Positions 29,752-64,000 of a DNA stretch of 64,000 nucleotides are shown here, one piece after another. The DNA lies in the IMG/VR virus record IMGVR_UViG_3300028591_000212, positions 677-64,676 of that record; one strand, written 5' to 3'. A program made the translations under genes and the position numbers. A model generated the notes under the pieces. It searched no databases and was not told the DNA's origin. It saw only the letters and a program-made list of their open reading frames with translations. The number at the start of each line of letters is the position of its first letter. Position 1 is the stretch's first letter. The stretch comes from a virus (taxonomy: Duplodnaviria > Caudoviricetes).

Positions 29752-30834
29752 ATGAAATTAGACTATACTCTAAAAACTTTAGAAGAGCGTAAAGCTCTAG
29801 TAGAAAAAATCTTAGAGGAAGACCCTCATCCAAACCAAAAGTATTTAGAGATTCTTTCAGATTATTTGATTTTCTGTATGACAGACGAAGAAAAAGATAA
29901 AAAAGAAATCCTTACTACCAATCGTCTATCTACAGTGAATAAGCGAGAGACCTCTTATGAAGGGCTGGTAGACCAATTTGAAAATGGCGAGGATGGTGTC
30001 TATAACCTCATTAACAACGACAAATATATTATCTTCAGGCCTAAAAATCGCATTACCGAACAAGACCTAGAAGAGATACCCGAATTAAGGGAACAGCAGA
30101 AAACAATCGCATTCTGGGAGGAAGCAGTAAAAAAATGCGAGGGACGAGATAAGTTTATAGCCAAGTCCGCCCTCATCGAAGCGAGAAGAGAGCAATACAC
30201 AATCCGCAGCTTCAAAAAGCCAATCACCGGAATGTCGAACAAAGCCAATATGGCAAAATTCCCATACCATATTTCATTAGATGAAAACATCACATTTGAT
30301 GAAGATGGTTATTGTGTTCCTCATGGTGTTTCGCTCATCGACCCCGCAGTATGCTGCGCCATTATGTGCAATTACACCACTCTAACGCAAGCAACCCAAG
30401 GCGCAATGGATACCGACCTTTACTATCTCTTGGAAGAATTTAAAGACGTATCTAAAAGAGCACTTGCCGACTATCCTGTATATCAACTTATTATGAAAGA
30501 TAAAATAGCTGAAATGCAAAACATAGATATTCAGCAAGATTTAATGTCTACTTTTGGTGTATGCCATTCTTTAGAATATATTTCATCTTTATGGCGTAAA
30601 AAAATCCCAGCCATTATTGCCTCAAAAGCAGAAGATGATTATTTGGAATGATACTATACAGAAAAAGAATATGGCCATTGAAAAAAATGCTCTAAGTGCG
30701 GTAAAGTTAAACTTGCCCACAATAAGTATTTCTCAAAAAACTCAACTTCTAAAGATGGCTTTTATTCAATATGTAAAGAGTGCCGAAACGCCAAAACTAA
30801 GGAAAAAAACACTGCGTTGGACAAAAAAAGATAG
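29752..30834 (+). CDS. conserved packaging-region protein with C-terminal Zn finger (TGA=Trp at 30649 and 30679)
   Basis: Read-through gives DYLE[W]YYTEKEYGH[W]KKCSKCGKVKLAHNKYFSKNSTSKDGFYSICKECRN; ends TAG 30834. Confidence 0.8.
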
Positions 30835-30876
30835 CCTAGCTCGTTTTCTTTTGGTGTTTTAATACAGGAGGAAGTA

Positions 30877-32037
30877 ATGGAAGATAAATATTATTATTGC
30901 GAAAAATGTCATAGAACCTTAAAAGGTGATTCTTTCTATACTTCAAATGACTTTAAAAAATATCCAAACGATGGTAAACTTAATCTTTGCAAAGATTGTC
31001 TTACTATGCACGTGGATAATTGAGACCCAGAAACTTTTAAATGGATTTTACAAGAAGTAGATGTTCCTTATATTCCAGACGAATGGAATAAACTTCTTAC
31101 TAAATATGCAAATCGTCCAGAAAAAATTACAGGAGCAACAATTTTAGGCAGATACCTGTCTAAAATGCGTTGCGCTCAATATAAAAATTGAAGATGGAAA
31201 GATAATGAATTTATTCAAGAAATGGCTGATAACAAAGTGCGCCAGACTATGGAGCGTCAAGGTTATGAAGAAGCCCAAATCCAAAAGGCTTTACTCGAAG
31301 GGCATATTCCTGCGCCAGAAAAACCTCAGCTTGAATGGGAGACCCCTACACCAACTTCTAATTTTGTAGAAGAAGAATCACAAGATGATATAGAATTAAC
31401 CGATGAAGATAGACGATACTTACGTCTCAAATGGGGTAAAACTTACCGTCCAGAGGAATGGGTTCAACTTGAACAATTATATAATGATATGCTTGCGTCT
31501 TATGATATTCAGACAGCCGGACATAAAGATACTTTAAAAATGCTTTGTAAAACTTCTCTTAAAGCTAATCAACTTTTAGATTTAGGAGATGTAGATGGAT
31601 ATCAAAAAATGCAGAAAGCATATGATTCTTTAATGAAATCTGGAAAATTTACTGCCGTACAGAATAAAACTGAAAGTGGTGATTTTGTAGATTCTATAGC
31701 AGAGATTGTGGCAATCTGCGAAAAAGATGGTTTTATACCAAGATATTATGTAGAAGAACCAAAAGACAAAGTTGATAGAGTTTTACAAGACCTTCAAGCT
31801 TATACTCGTTCTTTAATCATGGATGAAATGAATTTGGGCGCTTTGATTGAGGGTGCTGTCAAATCTATTGAGGCCGATAAAGAAAAAGAAAATCGCCCTG
31901 ACGTCGATGATGAAGAAGCAAGTGAGGATTTTGAAGATAAGTTATTTGAAAACTTGGATAATCCAGACTATGTAGAAAATGAAGATTATGAAGAATTTAA
32001 TGAATTTTTAGATGCGCAAGAGGAGGCTGATAACTAA
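30877..32037 (+). CDS. CxxC protein upstream of TerL, candidate terminase small subunit (TGA=Trp at 31021 and 31189)
   Basis: AGGAGG SD, ATG 30877 in frame with ORF 31222..32037; CEKC...CKDC; stop overlaps the terL start. Confidence 0.72.
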
Positions 32038-33776
32038 TGGCTCTTCAAGAACTATTAGATTTAAATTCTTCTCATCAAAAGAAACTCGGTATATCAGAAG
32101 AGCGTCTTAATGAAATTAAGCCAGCTCTTCGACAGTATATCGCTTTTTGGCGTGAATACCCAGATATGTTTATTGATTTTTTACAAGATGGGGGAGATTC
32201 TAGCCGTAAAAAGGAATTAAATTTTTATTTTTATCAAAGAGTATTCTTGCGCGTGGCCATGCGTTATAAATATGTATATATGGTATTCCCACGTGCTTAT
32301 TCTAAATCTTTTTTATCTACTTTAGTTTTAATGTGCCGTTGTATTTTATATCCAAGATGTAAATTATTTGTTACCTCTGGAGGTAAAGAGCAATCAGCAC
32401 AAATTGTAAAAGAAAAAGTAAGTGAGCTTTGTACTTTAGTCCCCGCCTTAAATCGTGAGCTTGACCGCAGACCTGGCAAAACTCGTGAAGGTAAAGACTA
32501 TGTAAAATACGTTTTTAAAAATGGCTCTTATTTTGATAATGTTGCCGCTTCAGAACGTTCAAGAGGTCTTCGTCGTCAAGGTGGATTAATAGAAGAGTGC
32601 GTTGGCGTTGATGGCGATATTTTATCAACTGTCATTTTACCAATGATGAACGTATCTCGTAGATGTATGGATGGTACAACTCAAAAAGACGAGACCCTAA
32701 ATAAATCTCAAATTTATGTTACAACAGCTGGCTTCAAGGGTACTTTTAGTTACAAGAAATTAATTCAATTACTTGTGTGGATGGTTACCGAGCCAGAAAA
32801 AGCTTTTATCATGGGTGGAACATATCGTATTCCTGTTTTAGCAGGATTGCTCGACCAAGACTTCGTATCAGACCTTAAAAAAGATGATACTTTCAATGAA
32901 ATATCATTTGGTAGAGAATATGAATCTAAGTGGGCCGGCAGCTCCGATAAAGCTTTCTTTGATGGAGATGCGTTTGACCGCAATCGTATTCTTCAAAAAC
33001 CAGAATACGAAGAAAGTGGGCGCAATAGTACTTCTTGTTATTATGTAATCGCAGTCGATGTAGGACGTAAAGGATGCGCAACTGTAGCAGAAGTATTTAA
33101 AGTAATTCCTAGCTTTTTGGGAGATAGTCAAAAGAGTTTAGTTGGAATATTTGAATATGACGATGAACATTTTGAAGACCAAGCTATAAAACTTAAAACC
33201 TTATATTATAAGTATAATGCAAAAAAATTAATAATTGATGGCAATGGCTTAGGTATTGGCTTAATAGATTACATGGTAAAGCCGCAGGTTGATGTTGCCT
33301 CTGGGGCAAACTATCCAGACTTTGGTATAGACAATGATGATGAAGGTTTTTACAAAGCATTTAAAACTCCATACACTGAGCAAAATGCTATTTATATAAT
33401 GAAAGCGAATGCACCGATAAATTCAGAAGCTTATGCTAACGCACAAGTTCAATTATCTTCAGGCCATTTAAAGCTTTTAATAGATGAGCGTACTGCCAAA
33501 ACTAAACTTTTAGGTACTAAAATGGGGGCAAAAATGCTGCCAGAAGAAAGGGCAATGTATCTAAAACCTTACACCCTAACTTCTATACTTAAAGAAGAGT
33601 TAATGAACCTTCATGAAGAAAATGAAGGCATGAATATTATTTTAAAACAGTCGAATAAAGGTATTAGAAAAGATAAAGTTTCTGCCTTGATTTATGGACT
33701 TTATTATATTAAATTAACAGACAGCAAAAAGAAACATAAAAAGTTTAAAGCGTCTGATTGAGTTTTTATGAATTAA
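32037..33776 (+). CDS. terL: terminase large subunit (TGA=Trp at 33759)
   Basis: Walker A-like PRAYSKS, RGLRR..GLIEE, YVTTAG, nuclease AVDVGR, IIDGNGLG, KDKVSA; true end KASD[W]VFMN-TAA. Confidence 0.92.
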
Positions 33777-33786
33777 AGGAGAACAC

Positions 33787-34143
33787 GTGAGAGCATCGAG
33801 AATGGAAATATGCGTTGAAGAAATTCTTCAAGCAAATGATATAGTATTTAAAGAAGAATATAGCATAGAAGGACTTAATAGCTCTAACGGCAGACCTTTA
33901 AGATTTGATTTTGCGGTTTTTAATGATGATGGAAATATTGACTTCTTTATAGAATGTCAAGGCCGTCAACATTATGAGCCAGTAGGAAAATACGGCGGTA
34001 AAAAAGGTTTTTATCAACAGCAATTCAACGATAATAAAAAACGTAGATATTGCGCCATGCATGGTATTCCATTAGTTGAAATACCATATACAGATGAAGG
34101 CACAATAACCTATGATTATATTATGGAGAAAGCTGGCTATTAG
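33787..34143 (+). CDS. PD-(D/E)xK endonuclease-like protein (DUF2726/Vsr-like)
   Basis: LRFDFAV...IECQGRQH...DNKKRRYC..GIPLVEI. Confidence 0.78.
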   Translation: MRASRMEICVEEILQANDIVFKEEYSIEGLNSSNGRPLRFDFAVFNDDGNIDFFIECQGRQHYEPVGKYGGKKGFYQQQFNDNKKRRYCAMHGIPLVEIPYTDEGTITYDYIMEKAGY

Positions 34144-34151
34144 GAGGATGT

Positions 34152-35756
34152 ATGGAAGAAAATAAAAATTTAAAACAAGAAAACATCCACGAAAAAGGCT
34201 TCGAGCTTTATAACAAAATTAAAGTAGGTAAGAAAACTTTAACTGACGCTATTGCCGATTTGGAAAATATCAAATGCGGCACATATGAAAGATATGGGCG
34301 TCCAGAATTTGTAAGAAAGAGCGAAATTTTAAGAGCTTTAGCTGAAAACGATGGCGAAAAAATTCGTGCTATTTCTAACTATTTTTATAGAACAAATGGT
34401 ATATACCAAAAGGTATGTAATTATATAGCTACTTTATATAGATATGATTGGTATGTAGTTCCAGAAATATATAAAGATGTAGAAGAACTAAATACAGAAA
34501 AGATTATAAATGAATTTAGTAAAGTATTAAATTATTTAGATAATACTTATATTACTAAATTGTGCGGCGAGTTAGCTTTAAAGGTAATTCTTAATGGCTG
34601 TTATTATGGTTATATTATAAAAACTAAAACCGGCTTATCAATTCAAGAATTACCAATAAAATACTGTCGTGTAAGATATTTTGTCGGCAATAAACCAGCA
34701 GTAGAATTTAATATGTCATATTTTGATGCTAAATTCCCTGACCCAAAATATCGTATGAAAGTCTTAAAGTTATTCCCAAAAGAATTTGCGGAAGGCTATG
34801 TATTATATAAACAAGGTAAATTAGAGCCGGAATATATTGGTAGTGATTTTATTGCCGGAGGTTGGTATTTACTTGACCCAGACAGTACAATCAGATTTAC
34901 ATTATCTCCAAGTGGGGCAGGCCTACCTTTATTTATAAATGCTATTCCATCTCTTTTAGACCTAGATGAAATGCAAGGTATTAATCGTCGTAAGCAATTA
35001 CAGAACTTAGCAAAGATTATAGTTCAAAAATTACCTATGGATAAAAATGGCGATTTAATCTTTGACGTAGATGAAGCAGCAGATATACATGAAAATGCTG
35101 TTAAAATGTTAAGTCAGATTGTTGGTGCAGATGTACTGACCACATTTACTGACGTAGACGATATTGACCTATCTGATACTTCTAACGTTTCAGATAATAG
35201 CCTTGAAAATTCAGAACGTGGTGTTTATAATGCATTAGGCGTTACTAAGAATTTATTTAACTCAGATGGTAATTTATCTACTGAAAAATCAATTCAAACA
35301 GATGCCGGAGCCATTAGAGGATTATTACTTCAATTTGAAGTTTTCTTTAATGAAGCTATACAACATTTAAACGCTAGTCCTAAAAAATATAAATTCAAAT
35401 TCTATATGTTAGAAACTACACAGTATAACTATATGGAATTATCTAAAATGTACAAAGAGCAAGTACAAATTGGTTACTCAAAGATGTTGCCTCAAATTGC
35501 TATGGGACATTCTCAAAGTTCTATACTTAATGCGGCTTACTTTGAAAACGATATACTTGGTTTGAGTAATATTATGATACCACCACTAATGTCTAGCGTT
35601 ATGAACGCGGATACTATTGCGGCAGTGGGTAAAAAAGGTAAAACACAAGACGCTGACGCTCAGAAAAATGTAGAAGGAGGCCAAGTTGGTCGTCCTGAAA
35701 AAGCTGAAAGCGAAAAGAGCGATAAAACTATCGCTAATGAAGAATCGCAAAAATAG
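34152..35756 (+). CDS. portal protein
   Basis: 534 aa, directly after terL; C-terminal GRP..K motif typical of portals. Confidence 0.82.
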   Translation: MEENKNLKQENIHEKGFELYNKIKVGKKTLTDAIADLENIKCGTYERYGRPEFVRKSEILRALAENDGEKIRAISNYFYRTNGIYQKVCNYIATLYRYDWYVVPEIYKDVEELNTEKIINEFSKVLNYLDNTYITKLCGELALKVILNGCYYGYIIKTKTGLSIQELPIKYCRVRYFVGNKPAVEFNMSYFDAKFPDPKYRMKVLKLFPKEFAEGYVLYKQGKLEPEYIGSDFIAGGWYLLDPDSTIRFTLSPSGAGLPLFINAIPSLLDLDEMQGINRRKQLQNLAKIIVQKLPMDKNGDLIFDVDEAADIHENAVKMLSQIVGADVLTTFTDVDDIDLSDTSNVSDNSLENSERGVYNALGVTKNLFNSDGNLSTEKSIQTDAGAIRGLLLQFEVFFNEAIQHLNASPKKYKFKFYMLETTQYNYMELSKMYKEQVQIGYSKMLPQIAMGHSQSSILNAAYFENDILGLSNIMIPPLMSSVMNADTIAAVGKKGKTQDADAQKNVEGGQVGRPEKAESEKSDKTIANEESQK

Positions 35757-35769
35757 GGAGGATTATTAA

Positions 35770-37020
35770 ATGCATTCAAGCGTAAAAACAAACTCTCCTA
35801 TTGAAATACTGAATATAACTCCAGTAAATCCATTGATTTCTAAATGTCAAATTAAGGTATGCTATGTAGGAGAACAACCAAATAGAAATGGCTCTGTTAT
35901 CACTAAGGAAGTTGCTACAGAAATGGCAGCAAGCTTACCTGGTTCTCCTATTGTAGGATATTTTAATAAAGACACAGGTGATTTCGAAGGGCATAATCGT
36001 GAGCTAGTAGTTGAAGAAGATAATTTCTACTTCAAAGATACTACTCGTCCTTATGGCTTTGTAGATTTAACAGCTCCTGTTTGGTTCGAAAAATTTTTAG
36101 ACGATGGAGTAGAACACGAATATTTATGTACTGAAGGTTATTTGTGGACTGGGCAATATCCAGAAACGAGTAGGGTACTAACTAGAGGAAATAATCAATC
36201 TATGGAATTAGACGAAAGCCTAACTCATGGAGATTGGTCAATTGATGATAATGGTAATCTTGAATTTTTTATTATCAACGAAGCTATTATTTCAAAGTTA
36301 TGTATTTTAGGAGAAGACGTTGAACCTTGCTTCGAAGGGGCTTCCGTCTCTAAGATACAATATTCATTTGATGACAATTTCAGAAATGAATTATTTACTT
36401 TAGTAGAGCAAATGAAAAAAATCTTACAAGAAGGAGGAACGTCTGTGAAGGATGAACTAGAAAAAGAAGTTCTTGATTCTGAAGAAGAAGTTAAAGACGA
36501 AGAAAATTCTAATCCTGAAGAAGAAGTTAAAGATGAAGAAGAAAATAACGAATCTCCAGAAGAAGAAGATAAGAATGAAGAACCAGAAGCACCAGCACAA
36601 TATAACTTAGATGATGTTGTAGAATATGCTGAATTAAGTGCTCAGTATTCTGCCCTTGAAGCAGAAAAAAATTCTCTTGAAGCTTCACTTAATGCCGCTA
36701 ACCAACAGTTAGCTGAATTACTAGAATTCAAAAAAGGTATTGAGAGAAAAGAGAAAGAAACTATGATTAATAGTTTCTACATGCTTTCTGATGAAGATAA
36801 GAAAGATGTTGTTGAAAATATCGACAATTATTCTTTAGAAGAAATTGAAGCTAAATTATCAGTTATTTGCGTTCGCAACAAGGTTAGTTTTGACCTTGAA
36901 GAAAATAAAGAGGATGCAGCTCACGCTTCTACTGTATTCAATCTAAACGAAGAAGAAGAAGACGTTAGCACACCAGCTTGGGTAAAGGCAGTTCAGTCTG
37001 TTGCGAAAAATACAAAATAA
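35770..37020 (+). CDS. prohead protease / scaffold fusion
   Basis: N-terminal SLPGSPIVG..F.GH, QSME, LCILG....PCF; acidic coiled-coil C-terminus. Confidence 0.8.
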   Translation: MHSSVKTNSPIEILNITPVNPLISKCQIKVCYVGEQPNRNGSVITKEVATEMAASLPGSPIVGYFNKDTGDFEGHNRELVVEEDNFYFKDTTRPYGFVDLTAPVWFEKFLDDGVEHEYLCTEGYLWTGQYPETSRVLTRGNNQSMELDESLTHGDWSIDDNGNLEFFIINEAIISKLCILGEDVEPCFEGASVSKIQYSFDDNFRNELFTLVEQMKKILQEGGTSVKDELEKEVLDSEEEVKDEENSNPEEEVKDEEENNESPEEEDKNEEPEAPAQYNLDDVVEYAELSAQYSALEAEKNSLEASLNAANQQLAELLEFKKGIERKEKETMINSFYMLSDEDKKDVVENIDNYSLEEIEAKLSVICVRNKVSFDLEENKEDAAHASTVFNLNEEEEDVSTPAWVKAVQSVAKNTK

Positions 37021-37042
37021 GTCAAGGAGGAAATATTAACAA

Positions 37043-37738
37043 ATGGCTAAGACAAGATTAAGCGCAGCTAAATATGTTGATAAAGGTTACGGACAAGTAG
37101 AACCTAACCACCTTTCTGCTCAATTAACTGGACAGATTTGGGCTCAACTACCAGCTGATGCCGCTATTGAAAAATTAGAAAACGGCCAGTTCGTCAAATA
37201 TGACTATGAAAAAGGTTTAGTTAATTTTGAAGGACCAGGCGAATGGATGTTAGTATTCAACGAAATTAAGATTTACCGTGATGAATTGGCAGACCAAGAT
37301 TTCGCTATGATTAAAGGCGATTATCAAGCACGTGTTTATTCTCCAGTAGATGCAGGTTCTTGGAACTATGACAAGCAATCTAGATTCTACGGTGGTGTTG
37401 ACGCTGCTGGTAAACCTTTTGAAAAAGTTACTGCTCCAGAAGATGCTTTAGAGTTACATTACAATGAAGACCCATTCCATATCGAAAGCAAACACTCATT
37501 TGCTAAGATGCCAGCAGGCACTACAATGGTTCCAAGAGTATTTAAGACTAATGTTGGTGATATCTTTACAACTAACATGGTTGATGAAGAAGAACTAGAA
37601 TTAGGTAATATTCTTTCACCAAGAGATGCTGATGGTATCCTTGTAAAGAATGACAACGGTGATATGAAGTGGCAAGTTGTTAAAGTTTATGATTTACCAG
37701 ACAGAAATAAAGCTGTCAAGATTATGAGAATTGCGTAA
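37043..37738 (+). CDS. capsid accessory/decoration protein
   Basis: Between scaffold and MCP; GQVEPNHLS, ENG, GDIFTTN motifs. Confidence 0.65.
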   Translation: MAKTRLSAAKYVDKGYGQVEPNHLSAQLTGQIWAQLPADAAIEKLENGQFVKYDYEKGLVNFEGPGEWMLVFNEIKIYRDELADQDFAMIKGDYQARVYSPVDAGSWNYDKQSRFYGGVDAAGKPFEKVTAPEDALELHYNEDPFHIESKHSFAKMPAGTTMVPRVFKTNVGDIFTTNMVDEEELELGNILSPRDADGILVKNDNGDMKWQVVKVYDLPDRNKAVKIMRIA

Positions 37739-37757
37739 GGAAAGGGGTTAAATTAGA

Positions 37758-38843
37758 ATGTTAGATAATAAGAATTTATTAGCTCTTATGAAAGTCGTTG
37801 CTAAAGCAGACGCCTCTAAACCTACAGCATACAGCTTTAACGGCGAGAACTTCACATATGAAGCATTAAATGAAACATTAAGAAAAGAATTAAACGAATT
37901 AGTTGGTACAAATGCTCTTTATAGAGAAAACAAAAACCAATTATTCTCATTAATTGAACAAACAATTGATGAAGTATTACCAGCAAAAGTAAGCGCTGCT
38001 TATGACCAATTTGCTGAAACTAGACAATTTGCTCAAGGCGATAAACCAATCTTCAAGAGAAAAATGAGCTCAAGAACTCGTGCAAAACAGTTCGTTACAA
38101 GAGTAGGTTTAGCAGGTAGATACGAAGTATTCAAACTTGCTAAGTTCGAAGAGAGCTTCGAAGTTCCAACTAGCGCTATTGGTGCTGCTGGACAAATCGG
38201 TTTTGAAGAATTCCTAGATGGTAGAGTTGATTTCGCTGAAATCATTGATATCATCATGGAAGGTATGGATGAATTAATCTATAATGAAATCGCTGAAGCA
38301 TTAAAGGCTTCTATCAACCAATTACCAGCTGCTAATAGAGTAGTTTCTAATGGTTTCGATGAAGCAGAAATGGATAGATTACTTACTGTAGCTTCTGCTT
38401 ATGGTAACCCAACTATCTATTGTACATATGAATTTGCAGTTAGAATGATTCCTCAAGAAGCTTGGAGATATACAGAAGCTATGAAGGATGAACTTTACAG
38501 AACTGGCAAACTTGCTGGTTATAAAGGTCATAACGTAGTTATCTTACCTCAAGGTTTCGAAGATGAAACTAACTCTACTAAGGTTATCGACCCAGGTTAT
38601 GCATTTATTATTCCTGCCGGCGCTGATACTAAACCAGTTAAAGTTGCTTTCGAAGGTGGCTTACAAACTAGAGAAGTTGAAGGCGAAGATTGGAGCAGAA
38701 CTATTCAATGCTACCAGAAGGTTGGTGTATCTTGTATGTTAGCTAACAACATCTGTATCTTCGTTGATTCTAGCTTATTAGGCAAGATGACTGATTGGTA
38801 TTTAGAAGATACAGTTACAAATACTGTACATACAACTGCATAA
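37758..38843 (+). CDS. major capsid protein
   Basis: 361 aa, position in head operon, biased high-expression codons, followed by a terminator. Confidence 0.85.
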   Translation: MLDNKNLLALMKVVAKADASKPTAYSFNGENFTYEALNETLRKELNELVGTNALYRENKNQLFSLIEQTIDEVLPAKVSAAYDQFAETRQFAQGDKPIFKRKMSSRTRAKQFVTRVGLAGRYEVFKLAKFEESFEVPTSAIGAAGQIGFEEFLDGRVDFAEIIDIIMEGMDELIYNEIAEALKASINQLPAANRVVSNGFDEAEMDRLLTVASAYGNPTIYCTYEFAVRMIPQEAWRYTEAMKDELYRTGKLAGYKGHNVVILPQGFEDETNSTKVIDPGYAFIIPAGADTKPVKVAFEGGLQTREVEGEDWSRTIQCYQKVGVSCMLANNICIFVDSSLLGKMTDWYLEDTVTNTVHTTA

Positions 38844-38872
38844 TTACTAAATAATATAGTATAATATTAACA

Positions 38873-38904
38873 AGGGAGTGGGGATTAGTTCCCTGCTCCT
38901 TTTT
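38873..38904 (+). terminator. terminator after the major capsid gene
   Basis: GGGAGTGGGGA/TCCCTGCTCC hairpin plus T run. Confidence 0.65.
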
Positions 38905-38933
38905 AAAAATAGGAGAAAAAGGAGAAAACAAAA

Positions 38934-39512
38934 ATGAATGAAAACAAAAATTACAAAGTCACTAATCGTAGTGCAGGCAGGGTAGTTTATAAAATCCCTG
39001 AAGATGGTATTCGTAGAGAATTCCAACCAAGAGAAGTCAAGTATCTTCCTTATGACGAACTTGCTAAATTAACAATGCAACCTGGCGGAAGAATGTTGAT
39101 GGAAAATTATTTACTTATTGAAGCAGAAGAAATTACTTCAGAATTAAATATCCACACAGAACCAGAGTATTATCTAAAAGATGAAGAAATTATTGAGTTA
39201 ATTAAGCATGGTAGTCAAGATGAATGGCTTGATATGTTAGACTTCGCACCAGAAGGAGTATTAGATTTAGTTAAAGCTTATTCAGTATCAATTCCATTAA
39301 ACGATGTAGCTAAGAGAGAAGCATTATTTAATAAGACAGGATTTAGTGTAGATAGTGCTTTAGCTAATTTAAGGGCTGAAAAGGAAGAAGAAGGAACACC
39401 TGCTCCTACAAAAGCTCAAGGTAGAAGAGTACATAAAGATGCTCCTGCCGCTACTCCAGGTAGACGCACTAGTGGTGAAAAATATAAAGTAATTGCTGAA
39501 AAAGACGAGTAA
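38934..39512 (+). CDS. hypothetical structural-region protein
   Basis: 192-aa ORF, GGAG SD. Confidence 0.75.
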   Translation: MNENKNYKVTNRSAGRVVYKIPEDGIRREFQPREVKYLPYDELAKLTMQPGGRMLMENYLLIEAEEITSELNIHTEPEYYLKDEEIIELIKHGSQDEWLDMLDFAPEGVLDLVKAYSVSIPLNDVAKREALFNKTGFSVDSALANLRAEKEEEGTPAPTKAQGRRVHKDAPAATPGRRTSGEKYKVIAEKDE

Positions 39513-39533
39513 GAGAAAGGAGAAAATATACAC

Positions 39534-40124
39534 ATGACAAAATTCAGTGACGTGTATAATCGTTTCCTTGATAAAATTACTGATGATATGTATATGGTGT
39601 TAACACCAGAAGATACAGTAAAGGATTTACAACATTTATTAATCAATGCAATTCCAGGATTTGAATTTCCTCGTAAGAGGTTGGACGAATATCGTATTGA
39701 TGTAGAAGAAAAATATAATCATGAAGTTGAAGATGGTGAAATGATTATTGGCTATGTCTGGAACGATTTGGAAACTGACCAATATCCAGATGAAGCTCCT
39801 TCTCAGAAAGTCATCGTTGACCATTCTTATTTTGAAGCAGATTTAACTGCCGAGGAAATCAACATTTTGGCAATTTTGATGTTAGAAGGTTGGGTTCAAA
39901 GACAGGTTACTTCAATTGAAAATACTAGAATGAAATATTCTGGTACCGATTTTAAGATGACTTCTCAAGCCAATCATTTAGCTAAATTATTAGCCTTGCT
40001 TTCAGAGATACAGCGCCAATCTCTACATATGCAGCGTTTATACAAACGTAGAAGAACAAACGATGAAGGTCAGATTGAATCCAATTGGGATGTTCTTCGA
40101 CATGGAGTATATGATGCTAACTAA
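39534..40124 (+). CDS. putative head-tail connector/adaptor
   Basis: MTKFSDVYNRFLDKITD, F..DL..EEINILA.LM, FKMTSQANHL; synteny. Confidence 0.6.
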   Translation: MTKFSDVYNRFLDKITDDMYMVLTPEDTVKDLQHLLINAIPGFEFPRKRLDEYRIDVEEKYNHEVEDGEMIIGYVWNDLETDQYPDEAPSQKVIVDHSYFEADLTAEEINILAILMLEGWVQRQVTSIENTRMKYSGTDFKMTSQANHLAKLLALLSEIQRQSLHMQRLYKRRRTNDEGQIESNWDVLRHGVYDAN

Positions 40125-40422
40125 ATATGGATTTAATTTAGATAGAAAAGATGTTGTTAAGAATTTAGACAGATTAACTAATCAATTGTGAAAATTAATA
40201 CCTATGCGCGAAAACAATGAAGATTGACATAAACAACTTCAAACTGTATTAGTAGAAATTGTTGGTTTAAATGAAGTTTTTGAATTTGATGGCGACCAAT
40301 ATTTAGTTCTATTAACTAAGCTAGAAGGGATGCAAAAAGTCGATTTAGAATTTATTGATTATCGCCGCATGGTATTTGAATCAATTTCTTCTTTGAGGAA
40401 TTTATTTAAACACAATGGCTAA
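40111..40422 (+). CDS. hypothetical neck-region protein, missed by the ORF track (TGA=Trp at 40189 and 40225)
   Basis: MMLTKYGF...LTNQL[W]KLIPMRENNED[W]HKQLQ...; 103 aa under code 4. Confidence 0.75.
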
Positions 40423-41386: not shown

Positions 41387-41404
41387 AGTTAAAGGAGATT
41401 TGTT

Positions 41405-42714: not shown

Positions 42715-42748
42715 AAATTCTATATAATTACATTAAGGAGGAAATTTA

Positions 42749-43732: not shown

Positions 43733-43756
43733 TTTAAAAATAATAAGTAAATTATA

Positions 43757-53505: not shown

Positions 53506-53530
53506 AAAGGTTCTCAGATGAGAACCTTTT
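53506..53530. terminator. terminator after the TMP gene
   Basis: AAAAGGTTCTC-AGAT-GAGAACCTTTT. Confidence 0.7.
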
Positions 53531-53607
53531 ACTTTGGTCTATTCTTGACAAAATAGAAAGAATTATCTTAAAATATATAAAGAAGAGGAGTACAAGGAGA
53601 ATTAGAG

Positions 53608-56600
53608 ATGCCAAAAGATTACGCAGAGAATTTTTTGGAAGCAATGGATTTAATAGTCCAAAAGCGTCTAGAAAATCTTAAATATGATAAAACAATATTA
53701 TGTGAAGTAATTGAAGTCCTTGATGATGAACAAAGAGTTTATCGTGTAAGTGATGGCTCCAATACTTTTATTGCGTACGCTATTAGTTCTCAATTCGTTT
53801 TTGAGGAAGGGGATAGTGTATATGTTAATGTTCCTAACGGGGATTATAATCAACAAAAATACATTCTTGGAAGAGAAGTAACAGACAAGAGTAAAGATTA
53901 TACCTATCTTAACCCAATGGAACAATTTTTTGATATGACTGGAAATCTATTAGAAAGTGAAGATACTGAATTAATAGATGAAGATGGTCAAAAAATTCCT
54001 GGCTCAATAAGCCTTTCAAGTTCTTTACTGGCTAATAATAGTAATGTAAATGCTAGTAATTATCAACAGCAAGAAGGTTATTTATATAAAACTCTTGGCA
54101 CTATAAGGGTGGCTGATGGCGCAGCTTATAATCGTTTAGCGATTCAAGCTGATTTTATGTCGCATATACCACAAGCATTAAATGGTAATTATGGATTATT
54201 ATTTAAGTTTAATTCACAGAATAAAGCTAAAGCGAGCGAAGAAACTGAAAATATAACTCCTAATAGTATTTTATTTGATAGCTCTGATATGTGGGGCAAC
54301 CCATACGATTTTGAAAATTATTATACTCAATCTTTAGTATATGATATTACAGATTGAGAAGATATAGAAACAGTACAAATAATTTTCTATCAAACTGCGA
54401 ATTTTTATAGTAGAGAAGATAGAACTGTTTTAATTGACCATACAATTCCAGGCACTGATGAATTATTACCAGATAATTTGTTTGTAGATAATATAAAGTT
54501 AATGCTTGGTTATGAAGCAAGTAACGAAGAAAAGATTGTTATTTATACAAAAGACAGTTTAACTTATAGCAGTAGCTTAACAGATGAACAAAATAAGAAA
54601 ACAGTTAATCTACGTTGGTCACATGTATTAAAAGACCCATTGGCTAGAAGTGTTGCTTTAATTAATTGGGAAAAAGTACAAGAGCATGTTGATTTAGAAA
54701 ATTATACAGTTAAGATTCATTGGTATAGATTTGATAGAGATTCTAATGATGAACTTGCAGGCACCTATTGAAAAGAAGTAAGTAATGATGAAGTTGATAG
54801 TGTTGATTATCAACATTTATTCAATTATATATTTATTCCACAATCAAATCTAAATAATGAATATATTAAATGTATTGTAGAAATTATAGATAATAAATCG
54901 TTAGATGAAATTAATGATGAATATGAAGATAAAAAAAGTGAAATTGAATCAGAATTACAAGCATTACAAAATGATATTGATTCATTAAACGCTCATTTAG
55001 AATTTTTGAAATTATCTAATGTTTCTACTTCTGGTAGTATTATAGGTCTTTATGATAATGATATAACAACAACAGAAACTTTAATAGCTGAGAAACAAGA
55101 TGAATATGAAAAAACTAATAAAAGATTAAATAGATTAAAGTTAGATGTAAGTTCTTGCTACACTTATTTAAAATCTGATATTTTAACTTTTACTAGTGAA
55201 ATCAATAAAGAAGATGAGAGCGCAATTGATTATGTTCAAGGTCTTGGATTAAGTTGTGATGATGATGGCGTATATCGTATTTATGACACACTTACTAATG
55301 ATTTAATTTCATCTTCTCAACAACACAAAGATAGAATAATTAGACTTAATTTTAAGTCATTATTAACACAAGACCAAAATGCTGGGATTACTCAAGTAAG
55401 GTGGTACATACCTCGTGGTAATACTATGATACAAGAGCCAATAGCTGGCATTAATTATACAGAACAACATACCGATGAGTATGATGAAAGAATTGAAATT
55501 ACAGATGATTATTATATAATTGTTAGAAGTAATCCAAAGATAATATCACACTCTTCTGGTACTTATTCTACAAAAGATTGTGTTGTTGAACAAACATATA
55601 GAATTAAACCTCATTTATTACAAAGTGATTGTAATAATGTTATTAAGTGCGAGGTTGTTAGAAATAATATTACATACGGCCCATCAGAGAAAGAATTAAT
55701 TTTTGGTGTTGTAGGTTCTAATGGAACTAATAACACATTAATTATTAGTATGGGTAGTGAATATAATAAAACTACTAATGAGTTAGTTGAAGCAGCTCCT
55801 CCAGCTTGGACTTTAGGAGAAAATAATAATTATATTCAATTACATCACTATTTATATGATGAAGATAATAAGTTAGTAAATGACTTAATTAAGTCAATTG
55901 AATATAGTGTTGTTTATGGTCCTGGCTTTAGTGTTGATAATTCAACCGAAAGATTAACATTATCTGGTCAAGGTGACAGAGGATGTATTATCAAATGTAA
56001 AGTTAGACTTGAAGATGGTATTACAAACGCTGAAAAAGATACAGAAGACCAAACAGTAAGTTATGAATTTGTTAGAGGATATACTGCTTACTTAGTAGTA
56101 GCTTGTCGTGCTGATAGAACTATTAAATGGTTTGATGGCGCAGATAGAGTTGTATATTCTTCTGCTGGTGGTTCACCAAGTTATTATAAAGCAACTTATA
56201 AAGTTAATGATGTAGAAGTTGGTAATGCCATTGCTCTTGATGGAAGTAATAATTTAATTGAATTAAGAAATATATTACATCCAGGCAATAACTATTTACC
56301 TTATGTAAGAAATTTAATGCTTTCACCACGTTCTATGTATTTAGCTGATGTAGAATATGATGTATGTGTTAAATGTTATAATGGAGATAATTTTGTATTA
56401 GGAGTTCCAATTCTTGTATTACAAAATCAGTGAGCTTCTTCAGTATTAAATGATTGAGATGGCTCATTTTATACCAATGAGGAAAAAGGTTTAGTACTTG
56501 GTACTATGCTTGGCGCCGGTAAAAAAGAACCTGCAGGAGACCATGCCAATACTTTTAGTGGAGTATTAATGGGTAATGTTAGTGCCGGAGCTAAAGATAC

Positions 56601-57609
56601 AGCGAGTGGCATTGGATTGTATGGATATCAATATGGTATTCAAAGTTTTGGTTTTAACGTAAATGGTAAAGCATTTATAGGTAAGCAACAAAAATCCCAA
56701 ATATTATTCGATGGTAATAATGGTACTATTAAGAATTATGCGTTTGACCATGGTAATAATACTGGTATCCAGTTAAATATGAATGGTGATGATGATTCAG
56801 ACCAAACATTTATTATTCGTAAAAATGGTACTGATATTGTTAAGCTTTCTTCTGGTTCTCCTTACTTAACGATTAGGGGCACTGATAAAAAAGTAAGGAT
56901 GAAAGTTGATGATAGTGGTGCTACAATTGGAGCTTGAAAATTAAATGAAACTACATTAACAGCTGGTAATATTACATTAAATAGTAATGGTAGTATGTAC
57001 GGTGGAAATAGTGGAAGAACTTGAAAAATTGATACAGATGGCACGGCTACTTTTAATTATTTAGTTGCCAATGGCGGAGGCTATATAGCCGGATGGGAAA
57101 TTAGCTCAGATACTTTATCTGGTGGCGACACTACAATTTGTAGCGATGGAACTATTACTTGTCGTAATTTAATTGCTACTAACACTGGTTCCATTGGACC
57201 ATATAAAATTAGTAGTAGTAGTTTATCTGGTAATGGTATTTCATTAAATGGTAGTACTATAAAAGTTGGGAATAATTTAATATTAACATCTGAAGAAAAT
57301 GCTGGTTCTATTACATTAGGTAGTGCAAAGATTAGAGCAGGAGATAAAGTTCAAACAGTATCTATTAATAAAGATTTAATATTGTTAGGTAGTTTAAATG
57401 CTAATAACAACGTATCAGCACAACAAGGTAATTTTGATAGAATAACTATGTATCAAAATGGCGGTGAAACACAAGCATCGTTTGACGCAGGCTTAATAAT
57501 TAATATAAAATCTATAGTTAATGCTTTAATTAACAGATTAGATGAAATAGCTTTTAAAGGTGATAGTGTTACTGTTAATATGCTTACCGGCAAAGGCTCA
57601 ATAGATTAG
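53608..57609 (+). CDS. large minor tail/baseplate protein, 1333 aa (TGA=Trp at 54355, 54769, 56431, 56455, 56935 and 57022)
   Basis: Five track ORFs in one frame with only TGA stops between; Gly/Ser/Thr-rich beta-type C-terminus (IGA[W]K.., IAGWEI, IGPYKI). Confidence 0.8.
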
Positions 57610-57628
57610 AGAAAAAGGAGAAAATAAA

Positions 57629-57808
57629 ATGAATAGTCAAGTAAAAGAAATGCTAACAAGAATTTATAACACGTTGGCCCTAATTTCCACAAAAGGTGAG
57701 GACACAATGGTGATGGCAGATTGCCTTAGAGCCATTCAGAATTTAGTAGAGAAAACACCTGTTATTGAAGATAATGTGGGAATGGAAAAACCTGCTATCG
57801 AAGAATAA
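57629..57808 (+). CDS. small protein (59 aa), possible tail-fibre chaperone
   Basis: MNSQVKEMLTRIYNTLALISTKGEDTMVMADCL..., GGAG SD. Confidence 0.65.
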   Translation: MNSQVKEMLTRIYNTLALISTKGEDTMVMADCLRAIQNLVEKTPVIEDNVGMEKPAIEE

Positions 57809-57836
57809 TAGGTTTGAGTAAGAGGAGGGAGTATTT

Positions 57837-60800
57837 ATGGCAAAATTATATCCACCAGAAATACAAGGTACACTTCCAGCTTTTACAGGCGCAACTATTG
57901 TTGTGCCTTTTAACATGAATAAAGCAGTAAGTTTAACTTCGGATGTAAATACTGATGGTGGTTTTGAATTAAAAATTAAAACAGCGCAAAATGATAAGTT
58001 TATCTGTACTATAAGAAGTAATGAAAATATACCAGAAGGTGAACAAGAACGTTATGACAATCATTCTGTAACTTTTCATTTAACAGAAGACCAATTGGCG
58101 CAATTAACCATAGGTATTTCCTATAAATTACAATTAGCGTATGTTGATAAGCAAGGTTTTGTAGGATATTATTCTACTGTTGGTGTAGCTAAATATACTA
58201 CAAGACCTAACTTATCTATCAGCGGATTAAGTGGGGTTTCAACAAATGCGGCTTTATTCGAATATGTTGGAGTTTATAATCAACGTTCTGATGATAATAA
58301 AATAAAAGACGCTACAGAAAAGGTATATTCATATCGTTTTCAATTAATGGATGAGAATGAAGAAGTAATTGAAGATACTGGTGTCTTACTTCATAACTCT
58401 CAAAATGATGTTTATGGCTATGAAAGTCATGATGTTTTTAGACCGCTTACAAATATTGAAGAAGGTAAAACTTATTATATTAAATATTATGTAACGACTA
58501 GAAATGGTTTAGAAGCAAGCACTCCAATTTATAGAATTATAGCGATTGCTACAATAGAGCCTGAAAGTAAACCTTATTTACACGCTGAAGCAAATAATGA
58601 AGAAGGATACATTCATCTTTGGATGGATGATGAAATAAATAGAGTAGATGGTCTAGCTAAAACCGCGCATGGTATTTTTGAAGTATCACGTAAGAAAGAC
58701 AATGAAGGTTGGGTACCTATTACAACATTATCGTTGCAAGGTAATAAACCATCAGATTGAGAATTTTATGATTTTGTTGTAGAGCATGGATGTACTTATC
58801 AGTATTCTATGCGTCAATATAGTAAAGTTACAGGTTTATATTCTAGTAGAGAATATATTATGACCGATGAACTTTCTATTGATTTTGAAGATGCTTTCTT
58901 ATATGATGGAGAAAGACAACTTAAAATTAGATTTAATCCAAAAGTATCTACATTTAAAAATGATATTTTAGAAAGTAAGATGGATACTATTGGTGGTAAA
59001 TATCCTTACATTTTTAGGAATGGGTATACTCATTATAAAGAGTTCCCTATTTCTGGTTTAATTTCTTATCAAGAAGATAATGCAGAATTATTTATGAAGA
59101 AAGAAGATTATAAGTATGCGCTTGGTGAGAAATTACATAGACCTACTACAAAATCAAAAGGCACAGGAATTAAAGGATTTTTAGATACTGATTTAGTATC
59201 TGAAACAATTAATTCAGAAAGATTATTTAAACTTGAAGTTTTAGAGTGGCTTAATGATGGTAATCCTAAATTATTTAAGTCACCAACAGAAGGTAATTAT
59301 ATAGTAAGATTATTAAATGTCTCACTTACACCTACCGATTCTTTAGGTAGAATGTTACATACATTCAACGCAATAGCTTATGAAGTAGCAGAATGTAATT
59401 TTGCTAATTTAAATAAATACGGTTTTACAGAAACTGGTGATGTTGATACCACTCAAAGAATGGTAAAGACAATTAAATTATCAGATTATAAGGATGGTAA
59501 ATTTTCTGTTACTTATGGTGAATTAATTAAAGGTATTAGTAATGTTGGCTTTGTAGAATTCCATGACATGTTACCAGGCACAAAAGTATGGGTTAATGGA
59601 ATGGATTTCTTAATTGGCACTACTGGTACTTTAATGTTAAATGATATTGGTACTATATTCTCTGTTGCTGTTGAAGAGCCAAAATATTTAACTGAAAATG
59701 GGTATTGACTTAAATCATCTAATGTTGTTCCAGATGAACAAGGTAGATATGATGAAATGGTTACAGCCACTTTAGATGGCAGTGATGCTAATATTTTAGC
59801 TTTGAATGATTTAGGTTCTGTTGTTGTTAGTTTTGAAGGAGAAGGTACAACATACTTTGATATGATTACTTCTGCTGATATTGTCGATGTGCCTATTCAA
59901 CAATTTATCAATAGACAACAAGAGCCTGGTGGTGATGACGTAGATGAGGATATTGTAAGTAAGTATATTCTTAATATTAAAGATGAAATATTAAAATATA
60001 ATACTTTAAGATTTACTAAAAGAAATATAATGTATTTATACTGTAAAAAGCCAGAAGCTTTATACAGTAATTATACATTTAATAGTTTTACATATGAAGA
60101 AGATGGAAAAACTTTACCTATTTTCTATACAGACAGTTCATGTGCTGATGTATCTATGGGTATTATGGGGCCAGAAGATTTAGACCCTTGGTACTTATAT
60201 GAAATTAAAGGTTATGCTCAACCAATAGATTTGAAACAAGAAATACAAATCTTTGGTGAACGTAGAGAAGATGATACAGTTATATTTACAGATTATGGCA
60301 TGCCTGTTCTTAATACAGAAAAGGTAGATTTGTTCTTAAATAATAGAGATGCTTTATTAGAGGCAATTAGAAATCATGAAGTTAATCTTAATGCAGTTAA
60401 TTGAAAAGAACAAATTAAGAAATTAAAATCTAGATTTGTAGATGTAGATAAGTTTATTGAATTGTTGGAATCTGGTGCTTTAACCGAAGAAGGCTCTAGA
60501 GAATTTAGACAAATGATTCAAAGAGACGCGGATGATTTCCATCTATTTGAAGGATATTATAGAGATAGAAATTATATTACATGGCAATATACTGACGAAG
60601 AAGGTGACAGTCATGTTATTACAGATGCAAGATATTTACCATATCTTGGATGCTATTATGACCCAGTAGCACAAAGATTTTTACAAGATAGTCAATGTCA
60701 TTTTTACGTTGTGTTTAATGACGGTGTAAATCATACTACTAGTGCAGATATGGAAGGTATAAAAAAACATGCTCGTTTAAATTTCCCAGAAATAGTAGAC

Positions 60801-61799
60801 GGTGAAGAAGTAATAAGAGACCTTGAATATTGGCCTGTATGTAAAGCTGATAATTTAGCTGCACAACATAGTCAAGCAGAAATTATATTGGATTATTATA
60901 GATATACTGATTTTTATCAATATAATGAAACAGACAAAGAATTTATAAAAGTTCCATGGGCAACTGCTTCTGAGTATAATTTGGTTGATGGTAAATATTA
61001 TACTTTAATTTCAACTAAATTTATTGTTGATGAAAAGTATAATAATAAAGCTGATTATTATGTACGTAATAATTATCAAGAAGCACATGCAGGAGAATAT
61101 CAAGAAGATATTGAAAAATTCTATGACCATGTAGGTCAAGTAAGCTATAAAGATTATTGCGCTCAAGAGCATTTCTTAAGACAAGACTTATACGCTAAGT
61201 TATTAGACTCAATGGATGTATATGGAGTAAAATATTGCCCTTATTGTGGTCATAAAGAGGTATTGAATTTCTCTAATGCGGTTGCGATGCAGGAAGCTGT
61301 TCAGTGTCCTCATTGCGGAGAAGCTTGGAATATTGCCAGATACGAATTAGACGCTAGTGGTCAGTATGTGGCTGTTCCTAACTTGCCTATTAAGAATACA
61401 ACTCCTATTCGTATAGATTTAGATAATAATTATGGAGAAGATAAAACTTATGTAGATGATACAATTATCTTTGAAGTTAAAGATTTATCGTTTGAAGATA
61501 TACAGTCTATTAGAGTTGGTTCTGGTGTTATTTTAGATGCTTCGTATTTATTACTTAGAAAAACTTATAGTTTTGAACCAGAAAATTTATTAGAAGAATA
61601 TAACACAGCCAAAGAAAATTATGAAAGTTTATTCACTAAGCAATGGGCTGAAGATATGGATAGTGATGAAGAAAAGCGTACTGAATGGAACACACTTAGA
61701 AATGAATATGCAGCAACTTTTGTTGAAGCGTGGAATAATTTATTAGAACAAACTGAAATAAACAAAGCTCAATATTTAAGAGCGCATGGATTAGACTAA
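57837..61799 (+). CDS. large minor tail protein (distal-tail-like), 1320 aa (TGA=Trp at 58758, 59706 and 60402)
   Basis: Four track ORFs in one frame; IRFNPKVS.FK...DTIGGKYP..F.ISGLIS; internal CPYC...CPHC Zn ribbon. Confidence 0.78.
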
Positions 61800-64000
61800 T
61801 GAATACATATTTACTAGATAAAGATTTTTTAGCAACATTGGATTTACAAAATGAAAAAGAAGTATTTGCTAAACTTATTTCTTTAGATTTTGAAGAAAAT
61901 CCAATAGAAGAAATACAAGGAACAGTAACCGGAGGCTCAATAAATGTAGATGGGTCTTCGGCTGTTCGTCGTACTTGCAGTCTTACTCTAGTAGCAAAAG
62001 ATATAACTCTTAATGATTACTATTGGGGGTTAAATACCAAATTTAAGGTAGAGATTGGAGTACGTAATAAAATAAATAAAGAATACCCTGAGATTTTATG
62101 GTTTCCTCATGGTACTTTCATAATTTCATCTTTTAGTGAGTCATTATCTGTTAATACTTATACGATTAATATAAGTGGTAAAGATAAAATGGTTTTACTT
62201 AACGGAGAAGTTGGCGGCACAATAACTGCTTCTTCTTGGGATTTTGGTACACGAGATGAAATAGATGAAAATGGAATGATTAGTAATGTAGACATTCCAG
62301 TTAAAACAATAATTCGAGATGCTGTTCATGAATTTGCCAAAGAGCCATTTGCCAATATCGTTATTAATGATTTGGATACTCTTGGTATTGAATTAATGGA
62401 ATATAGAGGTAATAAACCTTTATATATGTTTATTGATAATAATTCAAGAGAATGTAGAAATGTTACTCTTAATGAAAATCAAACTATTTATATTAAAGAT
62501 TTAGATTATAAGCAAACTACTGTTGGCACTGGTGATTTCAATTATGATAAGTGTGTAGAATTAAATTTAGAGAATCCTAAATTTGCTACACCATCTGAAA
62601 TTACTTTTTCAGCAGATGATGACGCAAACCCTTATACAGTTGCCAAGATAGAGGAATATCAAACTGCTGGTTATAGAACAACAGAAATTACTTATGCTGG
62701 TGATTTAACTATTGCGGTTGGTGGAACTGTAACTCAAATGCTTGATAAGCTTGTTGCTATGCTTGGTGAGTTTGAATATTATTATGATGTTGATGGAAGA
62801 TTTATTTTCCAGAAGAAGAGAAATTGAATTCAAACATCATTTAATAATATTGTAGATACAAGAGACCAAACTTATGTGGCAAATGCAAAAGATACTTCTG
62901 CTGTATCTTATACTTTTGAAGGTGACAACTTATTATCCGTAGTACAAAATACTCCTAATTTAGCTAATTTACGTAATGACTTTAGCTTATGGGGAACAAA
63001 GAAATCTGTTACTGGTCAAGAGTTACCAGTACATATGAGATATGCTATTGATAAAAAGCCAGATATTTATAAAGATTTTGATGGGAATATTTGGTGTGCT
63101 AATATAGACTTTTTAGGTTTATATGTAGATGGCAAGCAGACTACAAAGAGTTTAGATGAAATAAAACAAGAAACAAAAGTAAAAATAGAAAACGAAATTA
63201 AGAAAAAATTAGTTAAATATACTAAAACAAAAAATACAGTTAAATTATCTGAAGATTGGTGAGATGTATTAGATTGAGCAAATTATTATTCTATTCTAAC
63301 TGGGGAATATCCATCTGGTAAAATGTCATTATATGCTGATAAAGTTGGTAATGGTGAAGGTGTAAGATTCGAAAACTTAAATGATATAATACCAGAGCCA
63401 ATAGTTGGAAAAGTTTATTACATTCGTTTAGCCAACGGAATAAAAGAATTTGTATATGATGGTACTCCGGCATATTGATTTGGTAAATTTATACAACCAT
63501 TTAATCTTTATGTAATAGACGTAAATGAAGATGGCACATTGGGATATTATGGTCATGAAACTCAATGTAATCATTCGTATCAATATTTTTTAGATAATAA
63601 AGAATATGGTATTACCAGCTATATTTATAGACCAGAAATACCAACACAAGTTTTTGAAGAAGTTACTGCTGAACAAGTTGAAGAATATTTACTTCAACAT
63701 TTAAGTCTTGTTGTTGATTCAAAAAATCCGCAAGCTATAGTTGACAAATATGATTTAAATGATGTAGAAATAAAATATGTAAATGTTTGTGATTGGCGTG
63801 AATTAATTTATCGTATGGCGCTAGATTATAACAAACATCATATGGAAGAAAATTTTGTCGCTGATATTATAAAAAATAATAGTAATGTTTTAGGTGAAAG
63901 TTATTATTCTACTGGTTTAACTGGGTATGAACAATATTATGTTGATATTCAAGGTTTCTGACGTCAATTATACTGTTGGGATGATTATGTTAAAATAGAT
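61799..64000 (+). CDS. baseplate hub/tail tip protein, runs off the window end (TGA=Trp at 62825, 63260, 63275, 63476 and 63959)
   Basis: GGSINVDGSSAVRRTCSL, GKDKM..LNG..GG, FEYYYDVDGRFIFQKK; three track ORFs in one frame. Confidence 0.8.

Follow-up and report, generated by a model that had tools for sequence, protein, structure and literature searches.

Late-gene reading of TGA as Trp in a siphophage genome fragment, and probable selection against the recoded codon in its abundant virion proteins

Among described phages, the closest in coding behaviour to the DNA considered here are the TGA-recoded (code 4) phages of gut Firmicutes, the Agate, Jade and Sapphire clades of Borges et al. (bioRxiv 10.1101/2021.08.26.457843), with which we compared it by description; a detectable tRNA(UCA) is present in only 35% of the TGA-recoded genomes of that study. 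In gene content it resembles the Enterococcus phages EF1, EF5, H1 and VRE9_1-4 (134-142 kb), whose large terminase (TerL) and major capsid protein (MCP) are 49% and 41% identical to its own, and which share with it the order TerL, homing endonuclease, portal, phrogs 34215, 35301, 4088, 30998, 3853, 29637, 31155, 6123, 4051 and 2729. The late gene order matches that of VRE9_4, with synteny also to EF1, H1 and the VRE9 group. These phages were cultured on Enterococcus and use the standard genetic code. The DNA in question, here called the window, is a whole stretch of 64,000 nt, bases 677-64676 of the 64,676-bp virus record IMGVR_UViG_3300028591_000212, and it differs from the Enterococcus phages in that TGA is read as Trp in its late genes.

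The best explanation as a whole, to which we give a joint probability of about 0.75, is that the window comes from a siphophage of 130-240 kb that infects Bacillota-type gut bacteria and carries an SPbeta-like YonB/YonF head module, that its lineage reassigned TGA to Trp instead of TAG to Gln, and that a late switch to TGA as Trp is combined with selection for translation efficiency against TGA in the abundant virion proteins. The record has a GC content of 33.5% and no terminal repeat, while relatives found by their capsid protein measure 120-240 kb, several of them with terminal repeats, so that the record represents about one third of a genome. Two gene blocks diverge at ~29.5 kb, one on the minus strand (1-29.3 kb) and one on the plus strand (29.7-64 kb), referred to below as early and late.

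Under the standard code (code 11) the late block falls into 40-odd pieces, whereas under code 4 it resolves into 21 open reading frames (ORFs) that cover 96% of the block and contain 38 in-frame TGA and 82 TGG codons. One of these TGAs, at 40394, is doubtful, as it probably lies upstream of the true start of gene 40355 (genes without a name are called by their first position) and is replaced by TAA in a relative, L325. Its exclusion leaves 37, the number given in a preliminary description of this DNA, which had joined the fragments into the same 11 late genes. Nine further ORFs are free of TGA and hold 22 TGG codons, in exact agreement with the approximate count made there, and one has no Trp codon. 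All 20 complete late ORFs end in TAA or TAG, as had been noted for the gene ends checked earlier; orthologs in relatives use TGA as terminator in 14%, the window late genes never.

The identity of the amino acid is indicated by homologs. In alignments with 80 IMG/VR relatives, the TGA columns at 30649, 31021, 33759, 40189, 40225, 40724, 41306 and 42634 hold TGG in 37-74 sequences each, and those at 30679 and 31189 hold Tyr. Further downstream, where five relatives could be aligned, TGG is found at 54769, 56455, 57022, 58758, 63260, 63275 and 63959, and Tyr or Phe at 56431 and 62825. Over all alignable TGA columns this amounts to 15 with TGG and 4-5 with Tyr or Phe; none shows a conserved Gly in the alignments to relatives, and the remaining columns are variable, like the TGG columns of the same regions. 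Single alignments cross several TGAs without a break, the 34 kb of the late block contain no in-frame TAA or TAG beside the TGAs, and four TGA positions are common to the window and the divergent L325. As far as sequence can establish it, TGA is Trp in the late block. At the same time, the A-ending share of Lys, Glu and Gln codons in the late genes is 80-82% while TGA makes up 32% of Trp codons, and TGA is therefore under-used throughout them.

The wider clade has mostly taken another route. Our set of relatives comprised 160 sequences from IMG/VR and metagenomes (L001-L080 and L324-L403), and 112 of them have interior in-frame TAGs aligned mainly to Gln (code 15), as many as 97 per 21-kb locus, with tRNA-Sup(CTA) present in three of the five relatives inspected. 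In-frame TGA at Trp was seen in a single one of the 160, L325, a 5.2-kb contig with a GC content of 33%. The clade is thus a mixture of code 15, code 4 and probably code 11. In the window, on the other hand, no TAG-joined ORF was found in the late block, and TAG terminates five late genes. Because the relatives have 3786 in-frame TGG codons and no interior TGA, TGA is derived in the window lineage. MCP searches of IMG/VR and metagenome contigs returned no relative above 74% identity.

The early block presents a different picture, and the features that bear on its code are as follows.

1..29305, minus strand: early block in the standard code, with 19 tRNAs, ~56 ORFs, 80 TGG, at most 1 in-frame TGA and many sigma-70 promoters matching at 12/12 positions
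3133..3546, minus strand: ORF with a probable in-frame TGA at 3490-3492; AAGGAG ribosome-binding site before the ATG at 3546
25356-25763, minus strand: deoxyribonucleotidase-like early gene of 136 aa, ending in TGA 25353-25355
25316..25338, minus strand: intrinsic terminator with a 9-bp GC-rich stem and a T7 tail, 15 nt past that TGA
25181-25153, minus strand: 12/12 promoter after the terminator, followed by the ribosome-binding site of the next gene

Counted over 56 non-overlapping minus-strand ORFs, there are 80 TGG codons and at most one in-frame TGA, so that the early block has no more than 1 TGA among 81 Trp codons compared with 38 among 120 in the late ORFs (Fisher p=7e-9); the late enrichment claimed earlier thus holds. 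The preliminary description had been confident of two early TGAs. The one at 3490 is plausible, with its ribosome-binding site and a longer ORF that begins directly after tRNA-Ile, and no homolog of the 3133-3546 protein was found in five relatives. The one at 4158 was rejected, since its position is immediately 5' of the ATG that starts ORF 3672-4157 and an extension through it would overlap tRNA-Ser 4215-4303. N-terminal code-4 extensions of 2618-3199, 5827-6399 and 10982-11992 were likewise discarded, as the domain matches begin inside the code-11 ORFs. In the gene at 25356-25763 TGA serves as a stop, because its reading as Trp would drive ribosomes into the terminator. Together with the homolog columns and the asymmetry between blocks, this stop supports the earlier proposal that UGA decoding is switched on late.

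Placement of TGA among the late genes has to be read gene by gene.

29707..64000, plus strand: late virion gene block of 21 ORFs with TGA as Trp, defined by ORF merging under code 4 and by homolog columns
29707..30834, plus strand: sigma-factor-like protein (phrog_5767) whose C-terminal part is Zn-ribbon/HNH-like; two TGAs, 30649 and 30679
30877..32037, plus strand: protein of phrog_3314, encoded upstream of TerL; two TGAs, 31021 and 31189
32037..33776, plus strand: large terminase, YonF-like; its only TGA, at 33759, is codon 575 of 579, close to the stop as previously described
33787-34143, plus strand: HNH homing endonuclease with no Trp codon, between TerL and portal, at the same site as in Enterococcus phage VRE9_4
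34152..35756, plus strand: portal (phrog_2739), 0 TGA and 2 TGG; homologs in relatives carry the recoded codon
37043..37738, plus strand: head protein adjoining MCP, a candidate decoration or scaffold protein, 0 TGA and 4 TGG
37758..38843, plus strand: putative major capsid protein (YonB family), 0 TGA and 3 TGG
38934..39512, plus strand: head-module protein (phrog_30998), 0 TGA and 1 TGG
40063..42714, plus strand: neck/connector-region genes 40063, 40355, 41405 and 42001, 7-8 TGA (40189, 40225, 40520, 40724, 41306, 42580, 42634 and the doubtful 40394)
42749..43732, plus strand: tail tube or major tail protein, 0 TGA and 2 TGG
43798..44949, plus strand: ORF of 383 aa, located between the tube and tape measure genes, 3 TGA and no TGG
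45619..53505, plus strand: tape measure protein, 2628 aa in one frame, 8 TGA
53608..64000, plus strand: three large distal tail proteins, 14 TGA in total
53608-57609, plus strand: first of these, 1333 aa, 6 TGA
57837-61799, plus strand: second, 1320 aa, 3 TGA
61799->64000, plus strand: third, >733 aa, running past the window end, 5 TGA

A protease/scaffold gene, TGA-free in the window, lies in the head block beside the portal, and gene 45011 has a single Trp codon and no TGA. The identity of MCP is based on an ESM Atlas match to YonB (score 0.99) and on synteny; PDB sequence and profile searches with MCP gave no match, its AlphaFold model is poor (pLDDT 48.6), and Pfam returned nothing for any late protein.

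The preliminary description had called the placement of TGA strongly non-random. Within the late genes, this is not borne out by the window alone, where the relevant p values lie at ~0.03-0.06: an omnibus permutation test over all window late genes gives p=0.059, and 22 or more Trp codons would lie in TGA-free genes with p=0.051. The contiguous head block from portal to 39534 has 0 TGA among 17 Trp codons (p=0.0013), and the contrast of the nine TGA-free genes with the others gives p=9e-5, a value invalid as a test since the group was picked post hoc. A general preference for G-ending codons is absent from these nine genes, the A-ending share of Lys, Glu and Gln codons being 0.80 compared with 0.82.

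The relatives support the claim in part, for four genes. As a measure of recoding we took TAG as a fraction of Gln codons in 104 TAG-recoded relatives, by homolog of each window gene. The share is 0.009 in MCP (37758), 0.011 in 37043, 0.032 in the tail tube (42749) and 0.076 in 38934, and it rises to an intermediate 0.164 in 45011, 0.25 in the protease/scaffold gene, 0.33 in portal, TerL and 41405, 0.34 in 39534, 0.42 in the tape measure and 0.45-0.49 in the neck genes 40063, 40355 and 42001. The four spared genes (MCP, 37043, 38934 and tube) have a mean share of 0.03 against 0.35 for the other late genes, with the same direction in 35 of 35 TAG-recoded lineages (clustered at 90% MCP DNA identity). 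In the window, the same four have TGA at 0 of 10 Trp codons compared with 37 of 108 (p=0.03). L325 has TGA only in 40063, 40355 and 42001, and none in MCP, 38934, 39534 or 41405.

In these codon counts the exclusion of recoded codons from MCP, 37043, 38934 and the tail tube is shown to be real and conserved. The earlier statement that abundant shell proteins stay code-neutral therefore stands for these four and falls for portal, protease/scaffold, 39534 and 41405, which have 2-4 Trp codons each and whose lack of TGA is probably small-number chance, because relatives carry recoded codons there at ordinary frequency. The spared genes also differ from other late genes in ordinary codon choice: in relatives, AAG reaches 59% (compared with 21%), GAG 35% (18%) and CAG 55% (13%), and in the window AAG is at 37% compared with 21% (p=0.003). 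Because the spared genes share this general expression-type bias in relatives, the cause of the placement is likely to be selection for translation efficiency and not gating.

These observations can be brought together in a model in which early genes would be transcribed from consensus sigma-70 promoters and translated in the standard code of the host, with TGA still a stop. A phage-supplied UGA decoder would then accumulate and make the TGA-containing late mRNAs readable; by precedent this decoder would most likely be a tRNA(UCA) encoded in the missing part of the tRNA array. Changes from TGG to TGA would arise under AT pressure and be tolerated in most late genes, while selection would purge TGA from the most-made proteins (MCP, 37043, 38934 and tube), where each suppressed codon would cost yield. 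We infer the timing of the switch, the identity of the decoder and the role of efficiency selection. The host probably uses the standard code and the code would be switched during infection, because of the early TGA stop and because cultured kin grow on Enterococcus, Bacillus and Geobacillus. The early/late asymmetry in TGA and the early gene stopping at TGA conform to what Borges et al. and Yutin et al. have described; the efficiency gradient is an addition to their model, as their texts do not describe such a gradient.

Several points weigh against this reading. Heterogeneity among late genes is borderline when the window is taken by itself, and the relatives, used as a test sample, are not phylogenetically independent. 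The codon bias of the spared four is weaker in the window than in relatives, with Glu and Gln codons unshifted, and the functions of 37043 and 38934 are suggested by position and codon bias only. Just one early TGA stop is robust; the five other candidate ORFs are short, with three of their TGAs inside TTGACA -35 boxes. As for the decoder, ARAGORN called no tRNA(UCA) among the 23 tRNAs of the contig, including in relaxed runs (introns, mitochondrial mode, low thresholds), and release factor 1 (RF1) and tryptophanyl-tRNA synthetase (TrpRS) are not on the contig, its early ORFs being too short except for the ATPase and the nucleotidyltransferase.

The alternative that survives best, although we consider it unlikely, is the one proposed in the preliminary description: adaptive placement of TGAs in the genes for low-copy packaging, neck and tail proteins would hold back these products until UGA decoding is switched on, with shell proteins made under either code. 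Timing control of this sort was proposed by Borges et al. Standard-code translation would cost TerL only 5 residues and leave portal, protease, MCP and tube complete, whereas early truncation would strike the neck genes, the tape measure and the distal tail proteins, and it is the neck genes that have the highest recoded share in relatives. Yet portal, TerL and protease are recoded at ordinary frequency (0.25-0.33) in those same relatives, so that there is no conserved code-neutral head set, and general expression-type codon bias marks exactly the genes that are spared. Moreover, the sigma-like gene that opens the late strand itself needs the decoding of two TGAs, at residues 315 and 325 of 375, just N-terminal to the Zn-ribbon/HNH-like part; under the standard code its product would be truncated at 314 aa. 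The pattern reads instead as expression-level codon selection.

Somewhat less probable is that the placement is due to chance throughout, since, at 1-4 Trp codons per gene, a set of nine genes without TGA will occur now and then. The two permutation results from the window are compatible with this, relatives do not spare portal, protease, 39534 or 41405, and 45011 is intermediate. Against it, four of the nine genes are spared in every one of the 35 TAG-recoded lineages, and L325, the second TGA-recoded relative, also lacks TGA in MCP and 38934. On the sequences compared here, chance is refuted for MCP, 37043, 38934 and tube and stands for portal, protease, 39534 and 41405.

Expression-level codon preference in a code-4 host had also been named as a way to explain the bias simply. 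Expression-type bias is indeed seen in the spared genes, but the host half of this proposal, a Mycoplasma-like or other bacterium with UGA as Trp in which the gene differences reflect codon preference alone, is very improbable. Such bacteria are known in several phyla, including gut Eggerthellaceae, and the low GC content of the phage would suit them. The early block, however, has at most one TGA among ~81 Trp codons despite a 4:1 preference for A-ending codons, and one of its genes stops at TGA shortly before a terminator; relatives end genes with TGA and the cultured kin have the hosts named above; and the phage tRNA-Trp has the anticodon CCA, not UCA. Finally, the idea that the TGAs are not Trp at all, being Gly (code 25) or the product of decay or sequencing error in a dead element, draws on one variable column, 48280, with Gly in 5 relatives and Trp in 3, and is scarcely credible given fifteen TGG columns and no column of conserved Gly, the lack of accompanying in-frame TAA or TAG, and the TGA positions in common with L325.

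On the preferred reading, a late switch with efficiency selection, the decoder has to be accounted for. The tRNA array runs off the contig end and lacks tRNAs for Glu, Thr and Asn, which are present in relatives, so that a suppressor may be encoded just beyond that end. The contig itself offers another candidate.

4739..4813, minus strand: tRNA-Trp(CCA), candidate UGA reader, called by ARAGORN; A27.C43 open (4-bp anticodon stem), U11-A24, 7-nt loop

In E. coli, opening of pair 27:43 raises UGA readthrough, ~2.5-fold for C27A (Fakih et al. 2026, PMC13092985), and tRNA-Trp(CCA) whose stem has 4 bp is found in 35% of UGA=Trp bacteria but in 8.9% of all bacterial tRNA-Trp(CCA) genes (PMC13092985); the mechanism was demonstrated for bacteria and protists, and phages go unmentioned in that paper. 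The window tRNA, with A27.C43, a 7-nt loop and A24, resembles both the 4-bp-stem tRNA-Trp of Zinderia and E. coli C27A and the Hirsh G24A suppressor, and differs in that a tRNA with A24 is not 'Blastocrithidia-like' by the definition of PMC13092985. The phage's own tRNA-Trp(CCA), delivered early from the array, might thus decode UGA without a dedicated opal suppressor, by a mechanism that is not known to have been described for a phage, a suggestion we make tentatively and regard as doubtful. A mismatch at 27:43 occurs in 2 of the 23 tRNAs of the record, the exact A.C arm is present in >116 viral contigs, and 23 of 118 viral tRNA-Trp arms (19.5%; anticodon arms with core CGGU/ACCG from contigs L092-L322) have an unpaired 27:43, all of which speaks against a special role. 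Anticodon stems of 4 bp may be commoner in phage tRNA-Trp than the 8.9% known from bacteria. Also unfavourable is that one TAG-recoded relative has U27.U43 with A24 while four relatives have 5-bp stems. Comparison of the A27.C43 variant with TGA recoding across contigs gave no signal, both scores being confounded by GC and by sampling of the tRNA array.

A tRNA-sized RNA at 1576-1660 (minus strand) ends in ACCA and combines a 5-bp acceptor-like stem with two arms of 6 bp each and a central hairpin that carries a CAAA tetraloop. It folds stably (minimum free energy -26.2 kcal/mol, z=-4.8) and is uncalled by ARAGORN and Rfam; as a UGA reader it is unlikely, its "anticodon" hairpin closing on a tetraloop or 6-nt loop. 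Inside the tRNA array, 1919-2163 (minus strand) gives a sub-threshold Rfam match to bacterial RNase P class B (58.8 bits, gathering 97, E=2e-14) and is possibly a reduced phage RNase P RNA. Between tRNA-Gln and tRNA-Tyr there are a sub-threshold YrlA (Y RNA-like) match at 4522-4590 (minus strand), scoring 32.4 bits, and, at 4558-4628, a weak match to tRNA with 23.6 bits, and a tRNA-Ile with genomic UAU anticodon lies at 3564-3638 (minus strand), as also in several relatives. Of the record's 23 tRNAs, 19 belong to the minus-strand block, where many small ORFs accompany genes for an RNase H-like protein, a phosphoesterase, an ATPase and a nucleotidyltransferase, preceded by unusually many perfect TTGACA-17-TATAAT promoters. 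TTGACA/TATAAT promoters matching at 12/12 positions occupy 17 sites at positions 9800-29750 of the window (minus strand), and many such promoters have an extended -10 TG (140 sites compared with 80 expected); short ORFs "ending" in the TGA of a TTGACA -35 box are found at 27143, 24187 and 22781.

With the window, a large clade of gut siphophages in which TAG-to-Gln recoding otherwise prevails gains a TGA-to-Trp lineage of at least two members, and two code changes can be compared side by side, in a natural setting, on a single genome architecture. Whichever stop is reassigned, the most abundant virion proteins avoid it, which argues that suppression is costly; codon placement would then reflect translation efficiency at least as much as regulatory timing. 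Should tRNA-Trp(CCA) prove to be the decoder, it could account for the ~65% of TGA-recoded phage genomes without a detectable tRNA(UCA). TGA recoding occurs on the same fragment as a tRNA-Trp(CCA) of a type for which UGA reading was recently demonstrated, and decoding in suppressor-less phages thereby becomes testable.

By its codon use the window phage joins an already known kind, the stop-codon-recoded phages. With the Agate, Jade and Sapphire clades it shares a large genome, TGA as Trp in structural genes, standard early or replication genes, the loss of TGA as a stop, and membership of a clade that mixes codes 11, 15 and 4. It differs in that the code-change module of those phages (RF1, TrpRS, suppressor tRNA) was not found on the window fragment, and what Borges et al. 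report is a preference of genes for the recoded codon rather than its exclusion from those for capsid and tube; the word 'capsid' is absent from their text. The zeta, beta and delta groups of crAss-like phages (Yutin et al. 2021, PMC7886860) likewise confine TAG or TGA reassignment to late genes, with codes that flip between close branches and an imperfect agreement between recoding and suppressor tRNAs. They are, however, an unrelated podovirus lineage on Bacteroidota, and their MCP carries in-frame stops that are used as a recoding marker (PMC7886860). Nearer in its head module is the Phassvirus group (phAss-1, OQ749652; Babkin et al. 2023, PMC10607447; 'Caudoviricetes code 15 clade' at NCBI), with TerL at 44% and MCP at 50% identity. 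phAss-1 is also a siphovirus of human-gut source with a tape measure of ~3000 aa, many tRNAs and a predicted Bacillota host, but it reassigns TAG to Gln with three tRNA-Sup(CTA), whereas the window reassigns TGA to Trp and retains TAG as a stop.

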